Part shown: one piece after another, positions 4,004-27,788 of the stretch | How positions within the stretch are numbered: the first letter of the stretch is position 1 | Layout of the letters: every line of letters starts with the position of its first letter | Virus record (IMG/VR): IMGVR_UViG_3300023443_000233 | From: a virus | Reading direction: 5' to 3' (one strand) | Length of the DNA: 42,505 nt | Notes under the pieces: generated by a model | What the model was told of the DNA's origin: nothing | The model's input: the letters and a program-made list of their open reading frames with translations, nothing else | The model's database searches: none | Position numbers and translations under genes: made by a program

Positions 4004-4018
4004 AGAGGAGGAAGTAAA

Positions 4019-4759
4019 ATGAACACGCCACAAATTTTTAGCTTCGAACAAAACCAAGTTCGGACGTTTCTGAAAAATGATATTCCGTATTTCGTGGCAA
4101 ACGATGTTGCCAAAACCTTGGGATACAGAAATCCAAGCGACGCAACTAACAAACATTGCAAGAAAGCCTTGAAAACGTGGGGTAGCGATTCGCTAGGTCG
4201 TCGCCAATCATTCAAAGTTATTCCAGAATCGGATGTTTATCGTCTAATTATCAAATCTAACCTACCAAGTGCAGAAAAATTTGAAGCTTGGGTAATGGAA
4301 GAAGTCCTTCCAACAATCAGAAAAACAGGAAGCTACACAAACGTTCCTCAAAATTTCGCTCAGGCATTGCGACTAGCAGCTGACCTAGAAGAAAAGAATC
4401 AACTACTCGAGCAGCAGATCGCTGAATATGAACCGAAAATCAGTTACCTAGATATGATCCTTTCATCAAAAGATACAGTAGCAACGTCTCAAATCGCAGC
4501 AGATTACGGAATGTCGGCAATCGCACTGAATAAATTGCTTAATGAGTTAGGTGTTCAGCATAAAGTCAGTGGTCAATGGATTCTGTACCGCAAACACATG
4601 AACCAAGGATACACAAAATCGCACACAAGCGAGATTCCAAAAGCTGATGGCGGCGTAAAAGTTGTGATGAATACTAAATGGACGCAAAAAGGTCGTGTCT
4701 TCATTTACAACTTATTAACTGCAGAGGGTTACTATCCTCAAATGGATCTACTGGATTAA
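4019..4759 (+). CDS. Phage antirepressor (Bro-N plus KilAC-type C-terminal domain)
   Basis: 246 aa. The N-terminus FVANDVAKTLGY ... ESDVYRLIIKSNLPSAEKFEAWV is typical of Bro-N. The C-terminus VATSQIAADYGMSAIALNKLL is typical of KilAC. RBS GAGGAGG is upstream. Confidence 0.9.
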   Translation: MNTPQIFSFEQNQVRTFLKNDIPYFVANDVAKTLGYRNPSDATNKHCKKALKTWGSDSLGRRQSFKVIPESDVYRLIIKSNLPSAEKFEAWVMEEVLPTIRKTGSYTNVPQNFAQALRLAADLEEKNQLLEQQIAEYEPKISYLDMILSSKDTVATSQIAADYGMSAIALNKLLNELGVQHKVSGQWILYRKHMNQGYTKSHTSEIPKADGGVKVVMNTKWTQKGRVFIYNLLTAEGYYPQMDLLD

Positions 4760-9644: not shown

Positions 9645-11972
9645 GTGGCGTATGAACACATTCCAGAAGAACTAAAGCAGCAAAAACAATGGTGTGTATA
9701 TCGATTGGTATGGAACGAAGAGAGAAAAAAACACACCAAAATACCAGTCGATCCACACACTGGAAACAATGGTAAATCTAATGATGAGAGTACGTGGTCT
9801 GATTATCAGACCGCACTCTCTGCAATAGAAAAATATAACTGTAATGGATTAGGTTTTTATTTCAAAAAACCTTACTTCGGAATTGACATTGATAATATCG
9901 AAGGTGAAATTCAACGATATTTACAAGGCGATATCGAAACAAATATGATGTATGAATTTGTAACATCGATTAAATCTTATGCTGAATACTCTCAATCGGG
10001 TAACGGTATCCACATTATCTGTAAAGGAAAATTACCTGGTCACAGACGTAGAAAAGGCAATGTCGAAATGTACGATTCTGGAAGATTTTTCGTTATGACA
10101 GGCAACACTGTCGATCGCAAATATAACCAAGTCATCGAACCATCAGAAACCACTCTAAAACTGCTATACAACCGATATATTGGAGACGATAAGATTGTAA
10201 GGTTTAACAATCAAAACGTCTCAGAATCGAAAATAGACCTCTCAGAAAGCGAGATAGTACAAAAAGCATACGAAAGTAAGCAAGGCGCCAAATTCAAAGT
10301 ATTTATGGAGGGTGGTTGGGAAGCTTTTTATGATTCCCAATCCGAAGCCGATATTGCTTTCGCGAACATGTTGGCGTTTTGGACCGGTAGAGATTATGAG
10401 AAGATGGACAGCATTTTCAGAGATTCGTCTTTATTTAGACAAAAGTATGACGAACGCAGGCCACCAAATTCAACATACGGCGGAAACTTATTAAACAAAG
10501 CAATCCATGAATGTGAAAATACCTATACGCCTAGCCAGTCGCATGGTTTCAGAATTTTCATTAAAGAGTTTGAAGAAAAGAAAGAAGACAAATTCTACTC
10601 CTATGATGACACCGGGAATGCAGAAAGATTTATGGATGTGTATGGAACCTTAGTCAGATACTCATACATTAATAAAGAGTTTTATTTCTACGATGGCAAG
10701 AGTTGGAAGATTGATGATACAGGTGAAATATCAAAAATGATTGATACCACAGTTGACATGATGAAAAATGAGAAAGTTTATATCCCTGCCGACTGTGAAG
10801 ATCCAGAAAAAATTGAAGAAGCCTTTAGGAAACACATCAAGCGTTCTCGGGGGAATTCTGCAAAGAAAGCTATGAGAGAACAAATCATGCACCGTGTATC
10901 GGTTTTACCAGATGAGTTTGATAGCGACACAACACTTCTAAATACACAAAATGGATATTTAGATTTGATTAGTGGAGTATTGCACGAACACAACATAGAC
11001 AAAAAGTTTACACGAATAGCAAATATTGAATATACAGATAAAATCGATGCACCGCAATGGACCGAATTTTTAAATCAAATATTTGATAACGACCAAGAGT
11101 TGATTAGATATGTTCAAAAGGCAGTTGGTTACTCACTCACTGGGTCCACAAGAGAGCAGAGTATGTTCGTGCTGTTCGGCGCTGGTAGCAATGGTAAATC
11201 TGTGTTTCTAGATACTATCTCATATATCATGGGCAGCTATGCGACGAACATGCAAGCGGACACGATCATGGTTCGAAAGTCTAACGGTGGAGCTAATACA
11301 GATATAGCGCGTTTGAAAGGCGCTAGGTTGGTGACATCATCTGAGCCTAATGAAGGCGTGCGTATGGATGAAGGTTTGGTCAAACAGTTGACTGGTGGGG
11401 ATAAAGTAACTGCTCGCTTTCTATACGGAAAAGAATTTGAATTTACACCAGAATTCAAGCTTTGGTTAGCAACTAACCACAAACCGATCATTCGAGGTAC
11501 GGATGACGGAATATGGCGAAGAATGAATTTAATCCCTTTTACCATACAGATTCCTGATCACAAAAAAGACAAGAACCTTAAATATAAACTTAAGCGTGAA
11601 TCGGTAGGAATCCTAAATTGGATAGTAGAAGGTTGTCTGATGTGGCAGAGAGAGGGTTTGAAACGACCAAAAATCGTTGAGGATGCTTCAAAAGAATATC
11701 GAGAAGAAATGGACGTAACTGCAGCATTTATCAACGATTGTTGTGAGAGAGGGATAAATAAGCGAGTAAAAGCTAAAGATTTTTATCAAGCGTACAAAAC
11801 TTGGGCAAACGAAAATGGTCAGTACGAAATGAATAGTACAAAGTTCGGTAAGGAAATGAGCAACAAATTTAATAAGAAAAAAAGTGGTGGAGTCATAGTT
11901 TACGAAGGAATTTCATTAACAGACGAATTTACGACATACGAAAACCAAGGAATTAGAAATTTGTTCAATTAG
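9645..11972 (+). CDS. Bifunctional prim-pol / D5-P4-type primase-helicase
   Basis: 775 aa. N-terminal prim-pol pattern (GIDIDN ... SGNGIHII), a central D5_N-like region, and Walker A GAGSNGKS in the C-terminal P4-family helicase. Confidence 0.9.
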   Translation: MAYEHIPEELKQQKQWCVYRLVWNEERKKHTKIPVDPHTGNNGKSNDESTWSDYQTALSAIEKYNCNGLGFYFKKPYFGIDIDNIEGEIQRYLQGDIETNMMYEFVTSIKSYAEYSQSGNGIHIICKGKLPGHRRRKGNVEMYDSGRFFVMTGNTVDRKYNQVIEPSETTLKLLYNRYIGDDKIVRFNNQNVSESKIDLSESEIVQKAYESKQGAKFKVFMEGGWEAFYDSQSEADIAFANMLAFWTGRDYEKMDSIFRDSSLFRQKYDERRPPNSTYGGNLLNKAIHECENTYTPSQSHGFRIFIKEFEEKKEDKFYSYDDTGNAERFMDVYGTLVRYSYINKEFYFYDGKSWKIDDTGEISKMIDTTVDMMKNEKVYIPADCEDPEKIEEAFRKHIKRSRGNSAKKAMREQIMHRVSVLPDEFDSDTTLLNTQNGYLDLISGVLHEHNIDKKFTRIANIEYTDKIDAPQWTEFLNQIFDNDQELIRYVQKAVGYSLTGSTREQSMFVLFGAGSNGKSVFLDTISYIMGSYATNMQADTIMVRKSNGGANTDIARLKGARLVTSSEPNEGVRMDEGLVKQLTGGDKVTARFLYGKEFEFTPEFKLWLATNHKPIIRGTDDGIWRRMNLIPFTIQIPDHKKDKNLKYKLKRESVGILNWIVEGCLMWQREGLKRPKIVEDASKEYREEMDVTAAFINDCCERGINKRVKAKDFYQAYKTWANENGQYEMNSTKFGKEMSNKFNKKKSGGVIVYEGISLTDEFTTYENQGIRNLFN

Positions 11973-16411: not shown

Positions 16412-16825
16412 TTGGAGAAATGGCGTGTTGAACGAGTCAAGGCAGTGTTGAAAGATTACCGAGATACGGATAAGTACGTCAGGAAGCTTGAAGAAGAGAT
16501 TCGAGTTCCGTATCGGGAAGAGGATATAAATGGAGATATCAAGGGGTCCAGAAGTGACAGTGATACAATGTTTGGTACATTGTGGACCATTGAAACAGAC
16601 AAGCAGATCCGGCGTTTGAAACGCAATAAGCAGATTGTACAAGAACTTCTCGATGAGTGCGGCAGTGACACTGAGACGATCATTCGAGAGTTGTATATCA
16701 AACGATTTCCGCAATATACGATGCAAGGGCTGGTTGATAGTTTCCAGATAAAGTGTGGCAAAACAAAAGCATTTGAATATCGGAACAGATTTTTCGAAGA
16801 GTTAGACAAGATGCTTGATGTATGA
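16412..16825 (+). CDS. arpU: ArpU/RinA-type late-gene transcriptional regulator
   Basis: 137 aa. The pattern VKAVLKDYRD ... LKRNKQIVQELLDECGSDTETIIRELYIKRFP is typical of the ArpU family. It is the last gene before the packaging region. Confidence 0.85.
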   Translation: MEKWRVERVKAVLKDYRDTDKYVRKLEEEIRVPYREEDINGDIKGSRSDSDTMFGTLWTIETDKQIRRLKRNKQIVQELLDECGSDTETIIRELYIKRFPQYTMQGLVDSFQIKCGKTKAFEYRNRFFEELDKMLDV

Positions 16826-16849
16826 ACGATTTGCGGAATTTTAGGCACT

Positions 16850-17346
16850 GAAAACGTGGTAAATTAGTATTATCAGATATCGTCCACAAGCAGAAACACA
16901 AAACGGCATTCAACCTCCTTTTGATACGTAAAATTATTCTGTGGGCGATAGTCACTGTGGCGGAAGATCCGCACAATCTGGGCGTGAGAGTTCACGAGAT
17001 ATAGAGTGTAATCAACGGAGCAGAGAGGTCCCAGTCCGTATTACCGAGTGGGGCAGAACCACTCCAGTGACATTGAGATTGGACAGTAAGCATGTGGCAA
17101 GCAGCCACCGAATTATCCCGGGGCTTTTGTTGGATAAACAATCTCAAAACACGGGAATTAGTCCCAGAAAAATAAGCATGCAGAGGGTAGCTCCCTCAAG
17201 TTGGTGTGGTCGAAAGGTGACGGCTCATAGAGGCTGACGGTTCGACACCGTCCTCACCAATAGGGTTTATAGTTATCCCGACTGCCAGTCAGCGAAAACT
17301 TGTTACATAGTATTTTTAGTCACTCATTGCGAGTGGCTTTTTATTT
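16850..17346 (+). ncRNA. Candidate large structured ncRNA or leader, class unassigned (5' end uncertain)
   Basis: The block is GC-enriched in an AT-rich genome. Stable local hairpins: 16956-16975, 16983-16996, 17046-17064, 17094-17108, 17153-17165, 17183-17197. A T-arm-like hairpin GACGG-TTCGACA-CCGTC lies at 17236-17252. A long-range pair GTCACTG 16951-16957 / CAGTGAC 17065-17071 is possible. It ends in an intrinsic terminator. The only ORF here (16941-17237) is R/S/G-rich and has no RBS. Confidence 0.55.
17319..17346 (+). terminator. Rho-independent terminator closing the structured region
   Basis: GTCACTC (17319-17325) pairs with GAGTGGC (17331-17337), with one G-U pair and loop ATTGC. 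It is followed by TTTTTATTTT. Confidence 0.65.
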
Positions 17347-18581
17347 TGCAGAAAAGCGAGGTGGCAGACATTACTAAGTGGACGGAACAGCAGGTCAAAC
17401 GATTGTCGGAATTGGCAAATGAAGGGCTAACAAATATAGAGATAGCGCCTATGCTGTCAGAGGAGTTCGGCGAAGAGTTCTCATGGCCAAGCGTTAGAAG
17501 TAAACGTGCCAGGTTGAAGTTGCCACCGAGCGAAAAGAATATGCGTGTTAAGCAAACAGATAAGGCTAAGAAGAATGTAGTATCTACAGAAATCAAATCA
17601 GATGGTACTCAGACTAATCTTATTAAGTTACGTATGACTGAAGAGCAGTCGAAGAATCCTAATTATGTATTACAAGCGCATGGTTATGATCCAGAAAATT
17701 GGGAATTGGTCCAAGCGACTAACAACATTTGGGAACAGAACAATCAAGTAGATGGACTTATACAGCTTTATCAATCAAAGATAGTTGTTAAGCCAAGGGC
17801 AGAAGTGAGCATTCAAGCGTTGGCTACAAAATTGCTGCAAAGTACTAAGCCGATTACAATTCATCCAATTATCAAAGGGAAGTGCAATCTAGTCATACCG
17901 TTGGCTGATTTGCACTTCCCTATTTTGTCGGAACGAAAGTTTGAAACCTATCTATCCGATGTATTAGCAATCATAAATAATGGCTATAAGACAATCGTTA
18001 TAGAGGTGTTGGGGGATATCTTTCACTCAAACGCAATGAAAGCAAGCCAAACGATCAAAGGTACTCAACTTGAAGACGTGGATATGGTCGAAGCAATTGA
18101 GTTGGCTAAAACATTCTTCATTACGCTCATCGATGAATCATTAAGAAAAAGCTCAGAGGTGCGGATTGAATTTGCCAGTGGTAATCACAGTGACTTTGAG
18201 TATTTGTTTCTAATGTATTTAGAGACACTCTATCCACAAGTAACGGTAAACAAACACAATCTGCCAAGGGTCGCATATCAGCTAGACAATGTAGGCATTA
18301 TGCTCACTCATGGACACTTTGGGAAAAAAGGCGATTATCCTATGCTATTCGCTACCGAGTTTCGAGACGTATGGAGCAAAAGTACGTGGCTTGAGATTCA
18401 CCAAGGGCATTATCACTCAATGGAAGCTCAAAACCTTAAAGGTGTTATTCATCGGCAGTTAGGAACAATAAAACCTAACGATCAGTATGAGTCGGAGAAT
18501 GGTTATACGATGAACTACAAGAGTACACAGGCGTTTGAATATTCAGCGGACAAGCTGAAAGTAATCTATGAGTTGGGGTGA
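17346..18581 (+). CDS. Calcineurin-like metallophosphoesterase with N-terminal Myb/GcrA-like HTH
   Basis: 411 aa. All five MPE motifs are present: ADLHF, LGDIFH, SGNHSDFE, LTHGH and GHYH. The N-terminus WTEQQVKRLSELANEGLTNIEIA ... RSKRARLKL resembles the GcrA/Myb HTH. The start is uncertain (TTG 17346 or GTG 17361, both with a weak RBS). Confidence 0.8.
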   Translation: MQKSEVADITKWTEQQVKRLSELANEGLTNIEIAPMLSEEFGEEFSWPSVRSKRARLKLPPSEKNMRVKQTDKAKKNVVSTEIKSDGTQTNLIKLRMTEEQSKNPNYVLQAHGYDPENWELVQATNNIWEQNNQVDGLIQLYQSKIVVKPRAEVSIQALATKLLQSTKPITIHPIIKGKCNLVIPLADLHFPILSERKFETYLSDVLAIINNGYKTIVIEVLGDIFHSNAMKASQTIKGTQLEDVDMVEAIELAKTFFITLIDESLRKSSEVRIEFASGNHSDFEYLFLMYLETLYPQVTVNKHNLPRVAYQLDNVGIMLTHGHFGKKGDYPMLFATEFRDVWSKSTWLEIHQGHYHSMEAQNLKGVIHRQLGTIKPNDQYESENGYTMNYKSTQAFEYSADKLKVIYELG

Positions 18582-18997: not shown

Positions 18998-19588
18998 GTG
19001 GCTAAGTTAACAAACAAACGTTATGGAGTAGTTTACTTAATAACTAACATTGTAAACAACAAAAAATATGTAGGTATAACCACACGATCCATCGATTCTA
19101 GGTTTGAAGAACACTGCAAAGCTGATAGTCTAATAGGAAAAGCTATAAGAAAATACGGTAAAGATAATTTCACGATTGAAATCATAGCTGAAACTACGAG
19201 TAAAGAAGATACTGTAGAAAAAGAAATTTATTATATATCCAATTACAATAGTTTCGAGAATGGTTATAACTTAACTATTGGTGGGGATGGAGTTGTTCAA
19301 AAGTTCAAAAGAGAAGTTCCTTTAAGCGAAGAACAGATAGAGTATTTGAATAATTTCCCACGTGATAACAATAGACATAAAGATTATTTAAAAATGACCA
19401 AAGTAGAATTTGTTAACGCGACTATAAAATGCCTCGTTAAAATGTATTTAGAATGCGAATACGAATTAGGGGTTAAACGAATTTTTGAATTTTTAAAAGG
19501 AAAAAGAGCTAGTGATTTTAATTTCTTAGAAGCCTTTTTAGAAACTGGTTTAATTTCTGAATATCATATCAAAAAATATGTAGCATAA
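18998..19588 (+). CDS. GIY-YIG family (homing-type) endonuclease
   Basis: Motifs YGVVYLITN ... YVGITT ... RFEEH ... NGYNLTIGG form the GIY-YIG catalytic core. It is free-standing, directly upstream of terS. Confidence 0.85.
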   Translation: MAKLTNKRYGVVYLITNIVNNKKYVGITTRSIDSRFEEHCKADSLIGKAIRKYGKDNFTIEIIAETTSKEDTVEKEIYYISNYNSFENGYNLTIGGDGVVQKFKREVPLSEEQIEYLNNFPRDNNRHKDYLKMTKVEFVNATIKCLVKMYLECEYELGVKRIFEFLKGKRASDFNFLEAFLETGLISEYHIKKYVA

Positions 19589-26894: not shown

Positions 26895-27426
26895 AATCAA
26901 AGGCCTTGAAAGTTTACGGCGAAAAGTCAAAGCAATACCGCAAATCTTAGATGATGCGATGTGGGATGCGACTTTTGAAATCACTGAGTTGATCAAACAA
27001 GCTGCCGAATTGCGATTGTCGTCTAGCATGAAATATTCTAGTGGTGAATTGTTGGATAGTTTGAAAAACGAAGTCGTGATTAATGCACAAAACCAAATTG
27101 TTGGACGTGTCTGGTCCGACAAGCAAGAATCGCTATTTCGTGAAGTTGGTACTGGTCCTGTCGGTGAAGCTAGTCAAAAAGACTTACCAGAAGGATTTAC
27201 ACCAGTTTACTCGCAAACAGCATGGTTTATCCCAGCAAAAGATGTTGCAGTTGATTTGGAAGCTATATACGGTATTCCTCGTGTGACTGTTCAAGGTACA
27301 GACTTCTACATTACCAAAGGACAGCCAGCACGACCGTTCTTGTATCCTTCTTTAGTAGATTTGATCGGTGAAGCACCTGAAATCTACAAAGAACATGTAC
27401 AACGCAAATTAAGGGAGTTGAAGTGA
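26875..27426 (+). CDS. HK97 gp10-family neck protein (probable GTG start at 26884)
   Basis: The pattern VEIKGLESL ... FREVGTGP matches the family. AGGA lies 9 nt upstream of GTG 26884. Confidence 0.7.
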   Translation: MIIVRVEIKGLESLRRKVKAIPQILDDAMWDATFEITELIKQAAELRLSSSMKYSSGELLDSLKNEVVINAQNQIVGRVWSDKQESLFREVGTGPVGEASQKDLPEGFTPVYSQTAWFIPAKDVAVDLEAIYGIPRVTVQGTDFYITKGQPARPFLYPSLVDLIGEAPEIYKEHVQRKLRELK

Positions 27427-27788
27427 TGGAACGAGTGAATATGAAGACAGTCACTGTTGAAGTATTACAATCCGTTACTGCTATCAAGAAGATTGCTACG
27501 GACTATCCTTCGACATGGAATACTTTCCCGTTAGCTATCTATCGAACGGCCAACAAACCATATCAGATTGATTCGTTGGGCAACGAGTTACAAACAGATT
27601 GGACGATCACAGTTGAATTATACGGAGACAAAAGCCAGACCAGTATTGCTGAAAGTGTTTTAAGTACATTCAGTGTTATTGGTTTTTCTGGTACCGCTAA
27701 AGATGCTAACACGGCTGATTTGAAGCGAATCATCGTTGAAGTAACAGCTGTAGTTGATAATGTTACGAAATACGTTTACAAAAAATAG
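27423..27788 (+). CDS. Tail completion / terminator protein
   Basis: About 120 aa, immediately upstream of the major tail protein. Confidence 0.6.
   Translation: MMERVNMKTVTVEVLQSVTAIKKIATDYPSTWNTFPLAIYRTANKPYQIDSLGNELQTDWTITVELYGDKSQTSIAESVLSTFSVIGFSGTAKDANTADLKRIIVEVTAVVDNVTKYVYKK

Follow-up and report, generated by a model that had tools for sequence, protein, structure and literature searches.

The closest working analogues of the RNA elements described in this work are transfer RNA (tRNA) mimics such as YrlA, together with tRNA-like processing signals, of which mascRNA and the TMERs of MHV68 are cellular and animal-virus examples. YrlA is likewise a non-decoding mimic of the D-arm, T-arm and acceptor stem of tRNA that is also found in phages, and a 7-bp acceptor stem made the Mycobacterium smegmatis YrlA a substrate of RNase P and of the CCA-adding enzyme (PMC4201824). 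Plant mitochondrial t-elements, from another domain of life, are also tRNA-like structures within longer transcripts, where cleavage by RNase P and RNase Z at these structures forms messenger RNA ends (PMC1920247). Here we analyse a block of bases (16826-17346) in a virus record of the IMG/VR database (IMGVR_UViG_3300023443_000233), whose 42,505 nucleotides we call the window, and we conclude that this block, located between a late activator gene and the genes downstream, is very probably an array of tRNA mimics.

Small stable phage RNAs that are co-transcribed with tRNAs or tRNA-shaped, and that are matured by RNase P, include RNAs C and D (species 1 and 2) of T4, C4 of P1 and CI of P4, the last two acting as antisense immunity RNAs. 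None of them shows similarity in sequence or model to the elements studied here, the Rfam C4 model included. ROOL and GOLLD share the habitat of these elements, in prophages of Lactobacillales and others and near tRNA islands (PMC12286853), but each has one conserved fold of 600-800 nt, in contrast to the chain of independent small modules found here. YrlA, for its part, differs in being encoded beside Ro60/Rsr, in carrying a Ro-binding helix and in ending within that helix; no TROVE (Ro60/Rsr) gene was found among the eight neighbouring open reading frames (ORFs) scanned. Processing has been demonstrated for the plant t-elements, whereas for the elements described here it is proposed.

Because tRNA detectors and Rfam pass over such elements, the annotation of temperate Firmicutes phages has a blank gap of 0.3-0.7 kb at a junction that ranks among their most conserved. 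The RNAs in this gap are under clear structural selection, keeping every feature of a tRNA except the anticodon loop, and they raise two ideas, namely that they punctuate the late or rinA transcript in the manner of tRNAs or that they act as decoys for tRNA-targeting defences, a field of active study. The analysis provides R1 as a usable model of the family, together with a defining geometry in which helices of 7 bp and 6 bp are combined with a variable insert and the D-arm of tRNA-Leu, and it clarifies the "tRNA island" habitat of ROOL and GOLLD.

Materials and methods

The window was searched with Rfam release 15 over its whole length at the gathering score and, between positions 16700 and 17500, at E<=10 with permissive filters; 20 related loci, designated here by L numbers, were searched with the same release. 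Covariation in the tRNA-Leu-like family was assessed on a set of 42 diverse members, excluding the window and its near-identical relative L004, and compared with 500 shuffles and with slid controls. The covariance model R1 was built from the alignment of these 42 members, again without the window and L004. Positions are those of the window, and the parts of the block and the two genes next to it lie on the + strand.

Architecture of the block

Bases 16826-17346 constitute a non-coding structured RNA on the + strand, in agreement with an earlier interpretation of this half-kilobase made without database searches (the sequence-only reading). The + strand folds at -157.9 kcal/mol (z = -2.67), which none of 100 shuffles equalled, and a conserved terminator stands at its end; the - strand yields z = -1.49. 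The gap after position 16825 is non-coding as proposed, the next long ORF starting at or after 17346, and the block is indeed enriched in GC (0.45-0.50 over 16800-17400 versus 0.33-0.41 in the flanks). The seven GC-rich hairpins listed in the sequence-only reading are all present in the sequence, and all of them are helices of modules or hairpins between modules. Comparison with related loci indicates three consecutive tRNA-shaped RNAs, the first derived from tRNA-Leu, the second pseudoknotted with a 7-bp helix and the third derived from tRNA-Lys (modules 1, 2 and 3). The pattern of substitutions shows RNA-level selection on the + strand, with the acceptor stem, D-arm and T-arm kept and the 7-nt anticodon loop lost or replaced; the modules cannot decode.

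Module 1 and the tRNA-Leu-like family

Module 1 (16951-17071) is a tRNA-Leu-like element, identified by its match to R1 and by covariation in its family. Its 7-bp acceptor stem joins 16951-16957 to 17065-17071, a long-range pairing that had been suggested as possible and is here borne out by compensatory changes in all seven pairs in the family. The D-arm (16960-16972) corresponds to the hairpin noted earlier at 16956-16975, and a variable insert of 71 nt (16975-17045), itself containing a hairpin at 16983-16996, replaces the anticodon and variable arms. The 6-bp T-stem (17046-17051 with 17059-17064) carries a degenerate T-loop, GGCAGAA. R1 matches 16951-17071 over its full span (model positions 1-106) with 43.6 bits and E=1.3e-10.

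A scan using the first 15 bases of module 1 as query returned at least 119 viral contigs, most of which conform to the pattern GUCACUG-UG-GCGGAA.GGGUAGACGC ... (variable) ... AUG-GCAAGG-UUCGAUU-CCUUGC-CAGUGAC, that is, a 7-bp acceptor stem, U8-G9, the D-arm of a class II tRNA-Leu and a T-arm. The inserts that replace the anticodon/variable region comprise 30-190 variable bases, short family members having loops of 4-6 nt, and the acceptor stem and D-arm of the pattern also occur in L089, in a true tRNA-Leu(UAA). With the T-arm as query, the same design was recovered with very different acceptor stems, which vary by lineage (GTCACTG, TAGGCAG, TGTTCCG, ATTGCGG, TAACAGG, GGCTGAG and others) and are always complementary. 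The family thus defined comprises at least 93 distinct sequences from distant lineages, all with the 7-bp plus 6-bp geometry; they come from Enterococcus, Listeria and Lactobacillaceae phages and prophages and from viral contigs of gut metagenomes. It is widespread in phages and apparently unannotated, as we found no description of it in open-access text, including a search by sequence, and no corresponding Rfam family.

Support from covariation in homologues is strong for this family. Among the 42 members, 98.8% of cells are paired and 14 of the 16 pairs show compensatory, both-sided changes; none of the 500 shuffles reached these measures, and the slid controls gave 31-44% paired cells. G-U pairs are found on the + strand only. 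The T-stem exceeds that of true tRNA-Leu by a single G-C pair that hardly varies, resulting in an acceptor/T helix of 7+6 = 13 bp. A D-loop GG and a UUCRA-type T-loop occur together in 65 of the 93 sequences and are both missing in 23, with five sequences discordant, a co-occurrence consistent with conservation of the tRNA elbow. Of the 93 sequences, 61 have U at position -1 and only two encode CCA; the trailer reads UAG, UUG, UAA or UUA.

With the tRNA-Leu and tRNA-Lys(UUU) of phage islands (RF00005), these elements share the 7-bp acceptor stem, U8-G9, the D-arm GCGGAA.GGGUAGACGC, the UUCGA T-loop and the genomic slot. They differ in the absence of a 7-nt anticodon loop, replaced by a 30-190-nt insert in elements of the module 1 type and by a stub in module 3, and, for the module 1 type, in a T-stem of 6 rather than 5 bp. 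They are also missed by both tRNA detectors: ARAGORN reported no tRNA or transfer-messenger RNA (tmRNA) genes in the window, and the Rfam tRNA model gave no match at E<=10, either in 16700-17500 or on a canonical member of the family in L016. The class is set apart from tRNA by its missing anticodon loop and by this failure of tRNA detectors. In the window, a 7-bp acceptor stem stacked on a T-arm is found in module 1 (6-bp T-stem) and in module 3 (5-bp T-stem), and an anticodon stem with a 7-nt loop in neither, module 1 having its 71-nt insert and module 3 its stub.

Tandem tRNA-Leu-like elements were observed in L005, L011, L014, L024, L028 and other loci. In Firmicutes prophage tandems, an element with a canonical elbow is followed some 200-217 nt later by one of the elbow-less type, with a conserved spacer (AUUAAAUGCCUAUGACGGUUACGACUACCG...). 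Rows of two or three such elements are also found in several viral contigs of a gut metagenome and in several bacterial genomes, with three in one contig and in one genome (L153, 6126-6950; L337, 4148-4556). A weak R1 match in the structural-gene region of the window (27417-27514; 14.9 bits, E=0.028), with several non-canonical pairs, is probably due to chance.

Modules 2 and 3

Module 2 (17075-17145) consists of a closing helix and an H-type pseudoknot. The closing helix has 7 bp (GAGAUUG with CAAUCUC, 17075-17081 with 17139-17145), helix P2 pairs 17083-17086 with 17127-17130 and 17088-17091 with 17123-17126, the 6-bp helix P3 pairs 17113-17118 with 17132-17137, and an inner hairpin occupies 17094-17108. 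The 17083-17091 strand of P2 pairs inside the loop of P3, and in three further sequence types (L087, L101 and L029) all three helices persist through compensatory changes. We read this geometry as resembling the acceptor/T stack of a tRNA, in that a 7-bp terminal helix adjoins a 6-bp helix and the 5' region pairs with the loop of the latter. A small spacer hairpin, GGGAAUUAGUCCC (17153-17165), comes after module 2 and is found unchanged in L006 and with changes in L058.

Module 3 is preceded by a conserved hairpin, GAGGGUAGCUCCCUC (17183-17197), which stands before a tRNA-Lys gene or a derivative of one in 25 distinct loci. In related loci it always lies 5' of a tRNA or tRNA-like element, and its variants (GGAGG/CCUCC, GAAGG/CCUUC) preserve the pairing. 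Module 3 itself (17202-17260) appears as a tRNA-Lys-derived element by its slot, its covariation and its cloverleaf-like minimum-energy fold. Its acceptor stem pairs 17202-17208 with 17253-17259, and a D-like hairpin is present, whereas the anticodon arm is reduced to a stub. The T-arm has a 5-bp stem (GACGG UUCGACA CCGUC, 17236-17252), and the discriminator is A at 17260; the hairpin GACGG TTCGACA CCGTC, singled out earlier for its tRNA-like T-loop, is this T-arm. The same slot holds ARAGORN-called tRNA-Lys(UUU) genes in L020, L021, L023 and L089, and others of the 25 related loci present graded derivatives at this position, with an anticodon loop of about 3 nt or with the whole arm missing. 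In the acceptor stem and T-stem 97.1% of cells are paired, with both-sided changes in 7 of 12 pairs, and R1 gives module 3 a weak score of 12.2 bits. ARAGORN calls of "tRNA-SeC(tca)" and "tRNA-Stop(tta)" in L081, L106 and L115 are, on inspection, tRNA-Lys derivatives, and these suppressor calls look like artefacts because the anticodon stem closes on a 3-nt loop (UCUGA-CUG-UCAGA).

A conserved frame with exchangeable cargo

Sequence comparison shows that the modules are exchangeable cargo, occupying 16951-17260, held between a conserved leader and a conserved terminator. The leader (16826-16950) is near-invariant in Enterococcus gallinarum phage phiEG37K, in L002-L005 and in other IMG/VR contigs, with or without cargo, and the pre-terminator segment (17262-17317) is conserved in alignments that include the cargo-less phiEG37K. 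The intrinsic terminator (17318-17346) comprises a hairpin (17318-17338) with an 8-bp stem followed by the T-run UUUUUAUUUU. A terminator scan recovered it at the end of the block, where it had been predicted, and homologous terminators with compensatory stem variants close the region in L016 and in dozens of other loci. Phage phiEG37K has the same activator gene, leader and terminator region in a gap of 223 bp and lacks the counterpart of 16952-17261, so the cargo is dispensable; in IMG/VR contigs with the same frame, the contents between leader and terminator differ.

In more than 70 distinct loci, the leader is followed by one to three tRNA-shaped modules, and a TACATA box and then the terminator separate these from the late genes (HNH, terS, terL). 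True tRNA genes sometimes join the modules in these loci, and a "AGCAACCGAGG...GUAGGUUGCU" module often precedes the TACATA box. A further module, closed by AGCAACC/GGUUGCU and with variable internal hairpins, occurs in many loci (e.g. L016, 671-750), usually between the last tRNA-like element and the terminator, and is absent from the window. The slot between the rinA-family gene and the late/packaging genes is a phage tRNA-island slot, in which relatives of the block carry true tRNA-Lys(UUU) and tRNA-Leu genes, confirming that the block sits where phages keep their tRNA islands.

The order of activator gene, tRNA-like array, terminator and late genes recurs in L016, in the Listeria-type locus L019 and in Lactobacillus phage Lb (L362, NC_047983). 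In phage Lb, a 666-bp unannotated gap after the RinA-like gene holds the array and then a terminator. A 58-nt element in this gap (4015-4072) is aligned end to end by the Rfam tRNA model with its 17-nt anticodon arm replaced by 4 nt, and a second tRNA-like element (4212-4269), whose loop we read as the anticodon GAU, matches model positions 9-63 only, without the acceptor stem. A tRNA-Leu-like element was found by eye at 4343-4479; its insert contains a second T-arm-like hairpin (GCCGG UUCGACA CCGGC). GOLLD, which we had expected in this gap downstream of rinA, is not there, and tRNA-like elements are found instead. In L019, which its rli28 match leads us to assign to Listeria, an ArpU-like gene is followed by a tRNA-Leu-like element, a small counterpart of module 2, a further tRNA-like element and, at the end, a terminator. 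Between this terminator and the late genes lies a type I toxin-antitoxin pair (10643-10957; rli28 143 bits, RatA 55 bits and a small hydrophobic ORF), and a link between rli28 and the array in Listeria was discarded, as rli28/RatA is an insertion located after the array terminator. The hosts and phages in which the elements were seen are Enterococcus mundtii, E. durans, Lactiplantibacillus daowaiensis, the L. brevis phage Lb and E. gallinarum-type phages. A D-arm scan of a genome collection yielded mostly ordinary tRNA-Leu and added only E. mundtii, E. durans and Lactiplantibacillus daowaiensis.

Two further interpretations of the frame were tried and rejected. The octamer TAGTCACT is repeated at 16949-16956 and 17317-17324, the 5' strand of the module 1 acceptor stem resembling the 5' arm of the terminator. 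A mobile element with these repeats as its target-site duplication does not agree with phiEG37K, where the presence/absence boundary falls at 16952/17261 and not at the repeats. Given this resemblance, the terminator arm could serve as an alternative partner of the acceptor 3' strand (CAGUGAC); a riboswitch-like role for that pairing was set aside, since it is not conserved in groups with other terminators.

Comparison with known RNA families

The suggestion that the block might belong to ROOL or GOLLD did not hold. Neither ROOL (RF03087) nor GOLLD (RF01998) gave a covariance-model match in the whole window at the gathering score or in 16700-17500 at E<=10. In fact, no Rfam model matched the window at the gathering threshold, and the only hit at E<=10 was a chance match of the JA04 small-RNA model on the terminator (E=0.4). 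Group I introns, T-boxes and tmRNA gave no Rfam match at E<=10, the last without an ARAGORN call either, and HEARO, C4 and Y-RNA-type families were likewise without Rfam matches. Over the 20 related loci, Rfam returned true tRNAs and, in L019, rli28/RatA. We also rejected a group I intron or intron-split tRNA-Leu as the explanation for the inserts, which at 30-190 nt have no intron core and differ from intron-containing tRNA-Leu genes. Genes of the latter kind are present in bacterial genomes L261, L262 and L356, where a tRNA-Leu of 316-322 nt has its anticodon loop interrupted by about 235-240 nt, which we read as group I introns.

Proposed function and alternative explanations

Taken as a whole, the explanation we favour, and regard as probable, is an array of anticodon-less, non-decoding tRNA mimics that is processed from a transcript. 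Transcription of the array would run rightward, with the array forming either the 3' part of the transcript of rinA or the 5' leader of the late one, and would stop at the terminator (17318-17346). The modules appear to keep the features that RNase P and RNase Z use, namely a 7-bp acceptor stem on a T-arm, mostly U at position -1 and a U-rich trailer without CCA, the last being the type of substrate cut by Bacillus subtilis RNase Z. With these features kept, they would be cut out as stable tRNA mimics of 60-120 nt, much as plant mitochondrial t-elements and mycobacterial YrlA are. We lean slightly towards such processing by RNase P and RNase Z, for which the shape of the modules and their flanking bases are the basis. 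The most likely roles would be processing punctuation of the transcript or the occupation of host factors that bind tRNA, although any one specific role downstream of processing is put forward tentatively and is by itself unlikely. A broader and more speculative proposal, which we consider doubtful, is that phages of Firmicutes, and others represented by viral contigs of gut metagenomes, carry widespread, fast-diversifying anticodon-less mimics that stem from tRNA-Leu and tRNA-Lys. Once cut out of the transcript across the junction of rinA and the late genes, these would serve as decoys or sponges that divert host immunity or toxins directed at tRNA. Their targets might be anticodon nucleases, toxins that modify the acceptor end or Schlafen-type tRNases, and the acceptor stem, T-arm and elbow bound by such enzymes would be the very features that the mimics retain; with the loop that is cleaved missing, such decoys could not disturb decoding.

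Several observations weigh against this explanation or limit its extent. R1 scores true tRNA-Leu genes about as high as module 1 (some 45 bits) and therefore measures tRNA-Leu likeness without separating the class from tRNA-Leu. The 13-bp helix rests on spacing and not on covariation, because the sixth pair of the T-stem is nearly invariant. Module 1 of the window is itself degenerate, with a D-loop AAGAU that lacks GG and the T-loop GGCAGAA, which places it among the 23 of 93 sequences lacking both elbow features; a match to R1 is thus present without the GG/UUCRA elbow, and module 1 may form no tRNA elbow at all. One pair of the module 3 acceptor stem is a U-U mismatch. General charging by leucyl-tRNA synthetase is disfavoured by the discriminator, which in the family is more often U than A. 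Finally, a sigma-70 promoter scan of 16826-17346 found nothing.

A rival explanation is that the modules are inert relics, decaying phage tRNA-Leu and tRNA-Lys genes tolerated without function in a non-essential slot. The window copies are among the most degenerate, a graded series leads from true tRNA-Lys to loop-less forms at a single position, the true tRNA-Leu of L089 has the same acceptor stem and D-arm as the family, and phiEG37K manages without the modules. Neutral decay, however, should break helices everywhere, and what is observed is 97-99% of helix cells paired through compensatory changes, only the anticodon/variable region free to vary, D-loop and T-loop features that co-vary, and at least 93 distinct sequences holding the 7-bp plus 6-bp geometry across distant lineages; we consequently rate functionless relics as rather unlikely. 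We give still less credence to one large ornate RNA of a new class, ROOL/GOLLD-like, with the three modules as parts of a single architecture. Such an RNA would account for a contiguous, GC-rich and densely paired stretch of about 310 nt with z = -2.67, found in the prophage habitat near tRNA islands that is known for ROOL and GOLLD, and tRNAs are sometimes embedded in the linker region of GOLLD (PMC12286853). It is at odds with the lack of any Rfam family at E<=10, and with the fact that each module also occurs alone and that their order and number vary, loci having from one to three tRNA-Leu-like elements, having or lacking module 2, and sometimes carrying a true tRNA in place of module 3. 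Moreover, every helix supported by covariation is local to one module, the modules are separate and recombined in related phages, and phiEG37K has none. Of the overall interpretation in the sequence-only reading, the structured RNA, tRNA-like T-loop, long helix and terminator stand, and the single large fold or ROOL/GOLLD-type RNA does not.

A cis-acting leader of the late operon, in which RNA and terminator would control the entry of polymerase in the manner of lambda PR'-6S-tR', had also been considered in that reading, and we find it improbable as an account of the block. The upstream gene encodes a RinA-family late activator, and an intrinsic terminator does lie between this regulator and the first late gene, as in lambda. 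It ends right at the ribosome-binding site of the gene that follows, here and in L016, leaving no room for a separate promoter, so late transcription would read through the terminator or start within it. For proteins of this superfamily, a terminator is known to separate the activator gene from the terS promoter, with start sites 28 and 118 bp upstream of terS, but RinA and ArpU proteins are described as promoter activators and not as antiterminators (PMC3753634). Lambda, in contrast, uses the antiterminator Q, and the cargo of the present block is dispensable. On inspection, late transcripts could begin within the 5' arm of the terminator, from the -10-like sequences CATAGT/TAGTAT that lie just 5' of the hairpin. 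Since phiEG37K keeps leader and terminator without the cargo, and close relatives swap it freely, any leader control must lie in the conserved flanks and not in the modules; a late leader with a read-through terminator is thus possible for the flanks and leaves the variable, dispensable cargo unexplained. The one remaining alternative, a 98-residue Arg/Ser/Gly-rich protein encoded by ORF 16941-17237, has in its favour 98 open codons with a GTG start, and we assign it a negligible probability. No Pfam or PHROG family matches this ORF, a stop at codon 28 interrupts its frame in the closest homologue (L004), no reading frame is conserved across 11 related loci, and substitutions track RNA pairing rather than codon positions, which upholds the earlier judgement that the block contains no credible coding sequence.

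Flanking genes and minor features

The leader is predicted to fold into a long hairpin (about 16878-16951) with ACCUCCUUU in its loop (16914-16922), a sequence identical to what we take to be the anti-Shine-Dalgarno end of 16S ribosomal RNA. The first downstream gene has the complementary sequence AAAAGCGAGG in its ribosome-binding region (17352-17364), by virtue of which a pairing between leader and ribosome-binding site is possible. The pre-terminator segment contains the palindrome GACTGCCAGTC (17281-17291), which reads GACTGCTAGTC in phiEG37K, and the TACATA box (17305-17310), which many groups also have, 8-12 nt 5' of the terminator. Palindrome and box may constitute a protein-binding site or a -10-like element, from which transcripts would begin within the terminator arm. 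The direct repeats pointed out earlier, GTCCCAG (17028, 17161) and TAAGCATG (17087, 17173), are present but not significant: GTCCCAG has two copies against 1.68 expected, with 53 of 100 shuffles reaching two, and TAAGCATG is an 8-mer whose two copies are at chance level.

The gene upstream of the block (16412-16825) encodes a late transcriptional activator of the RinA family. Its product matches TIGR01636 phage_rinA with 66.8 bits (cut-off 31.9) and phrog_36 (transcriptional regulator), and is 95.6% identical to ORF4 of phiEG37K; a Pfam scan of this protein returned nothing. The label arpU previously given to the gene is close but not exact, since TIGR01636 represents the RinA family, a sister of ArpU. 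The first downstream gene (17346-18581, from a putative start codon) encodes an exonuclease/metallophosphatase-like phage protein that matches phrog_704, "DNA repair exonuclease", with E=5.9e-92, and beyond it lie GIY-YIG, terS-like, terL and portal genes. The GIY-YIG gene is a free-standing, homing-endonuclease-like ORF (18998-19588; PF01541, E=1e-12) situated between the exonuclease-like and small-terminase-like genes.

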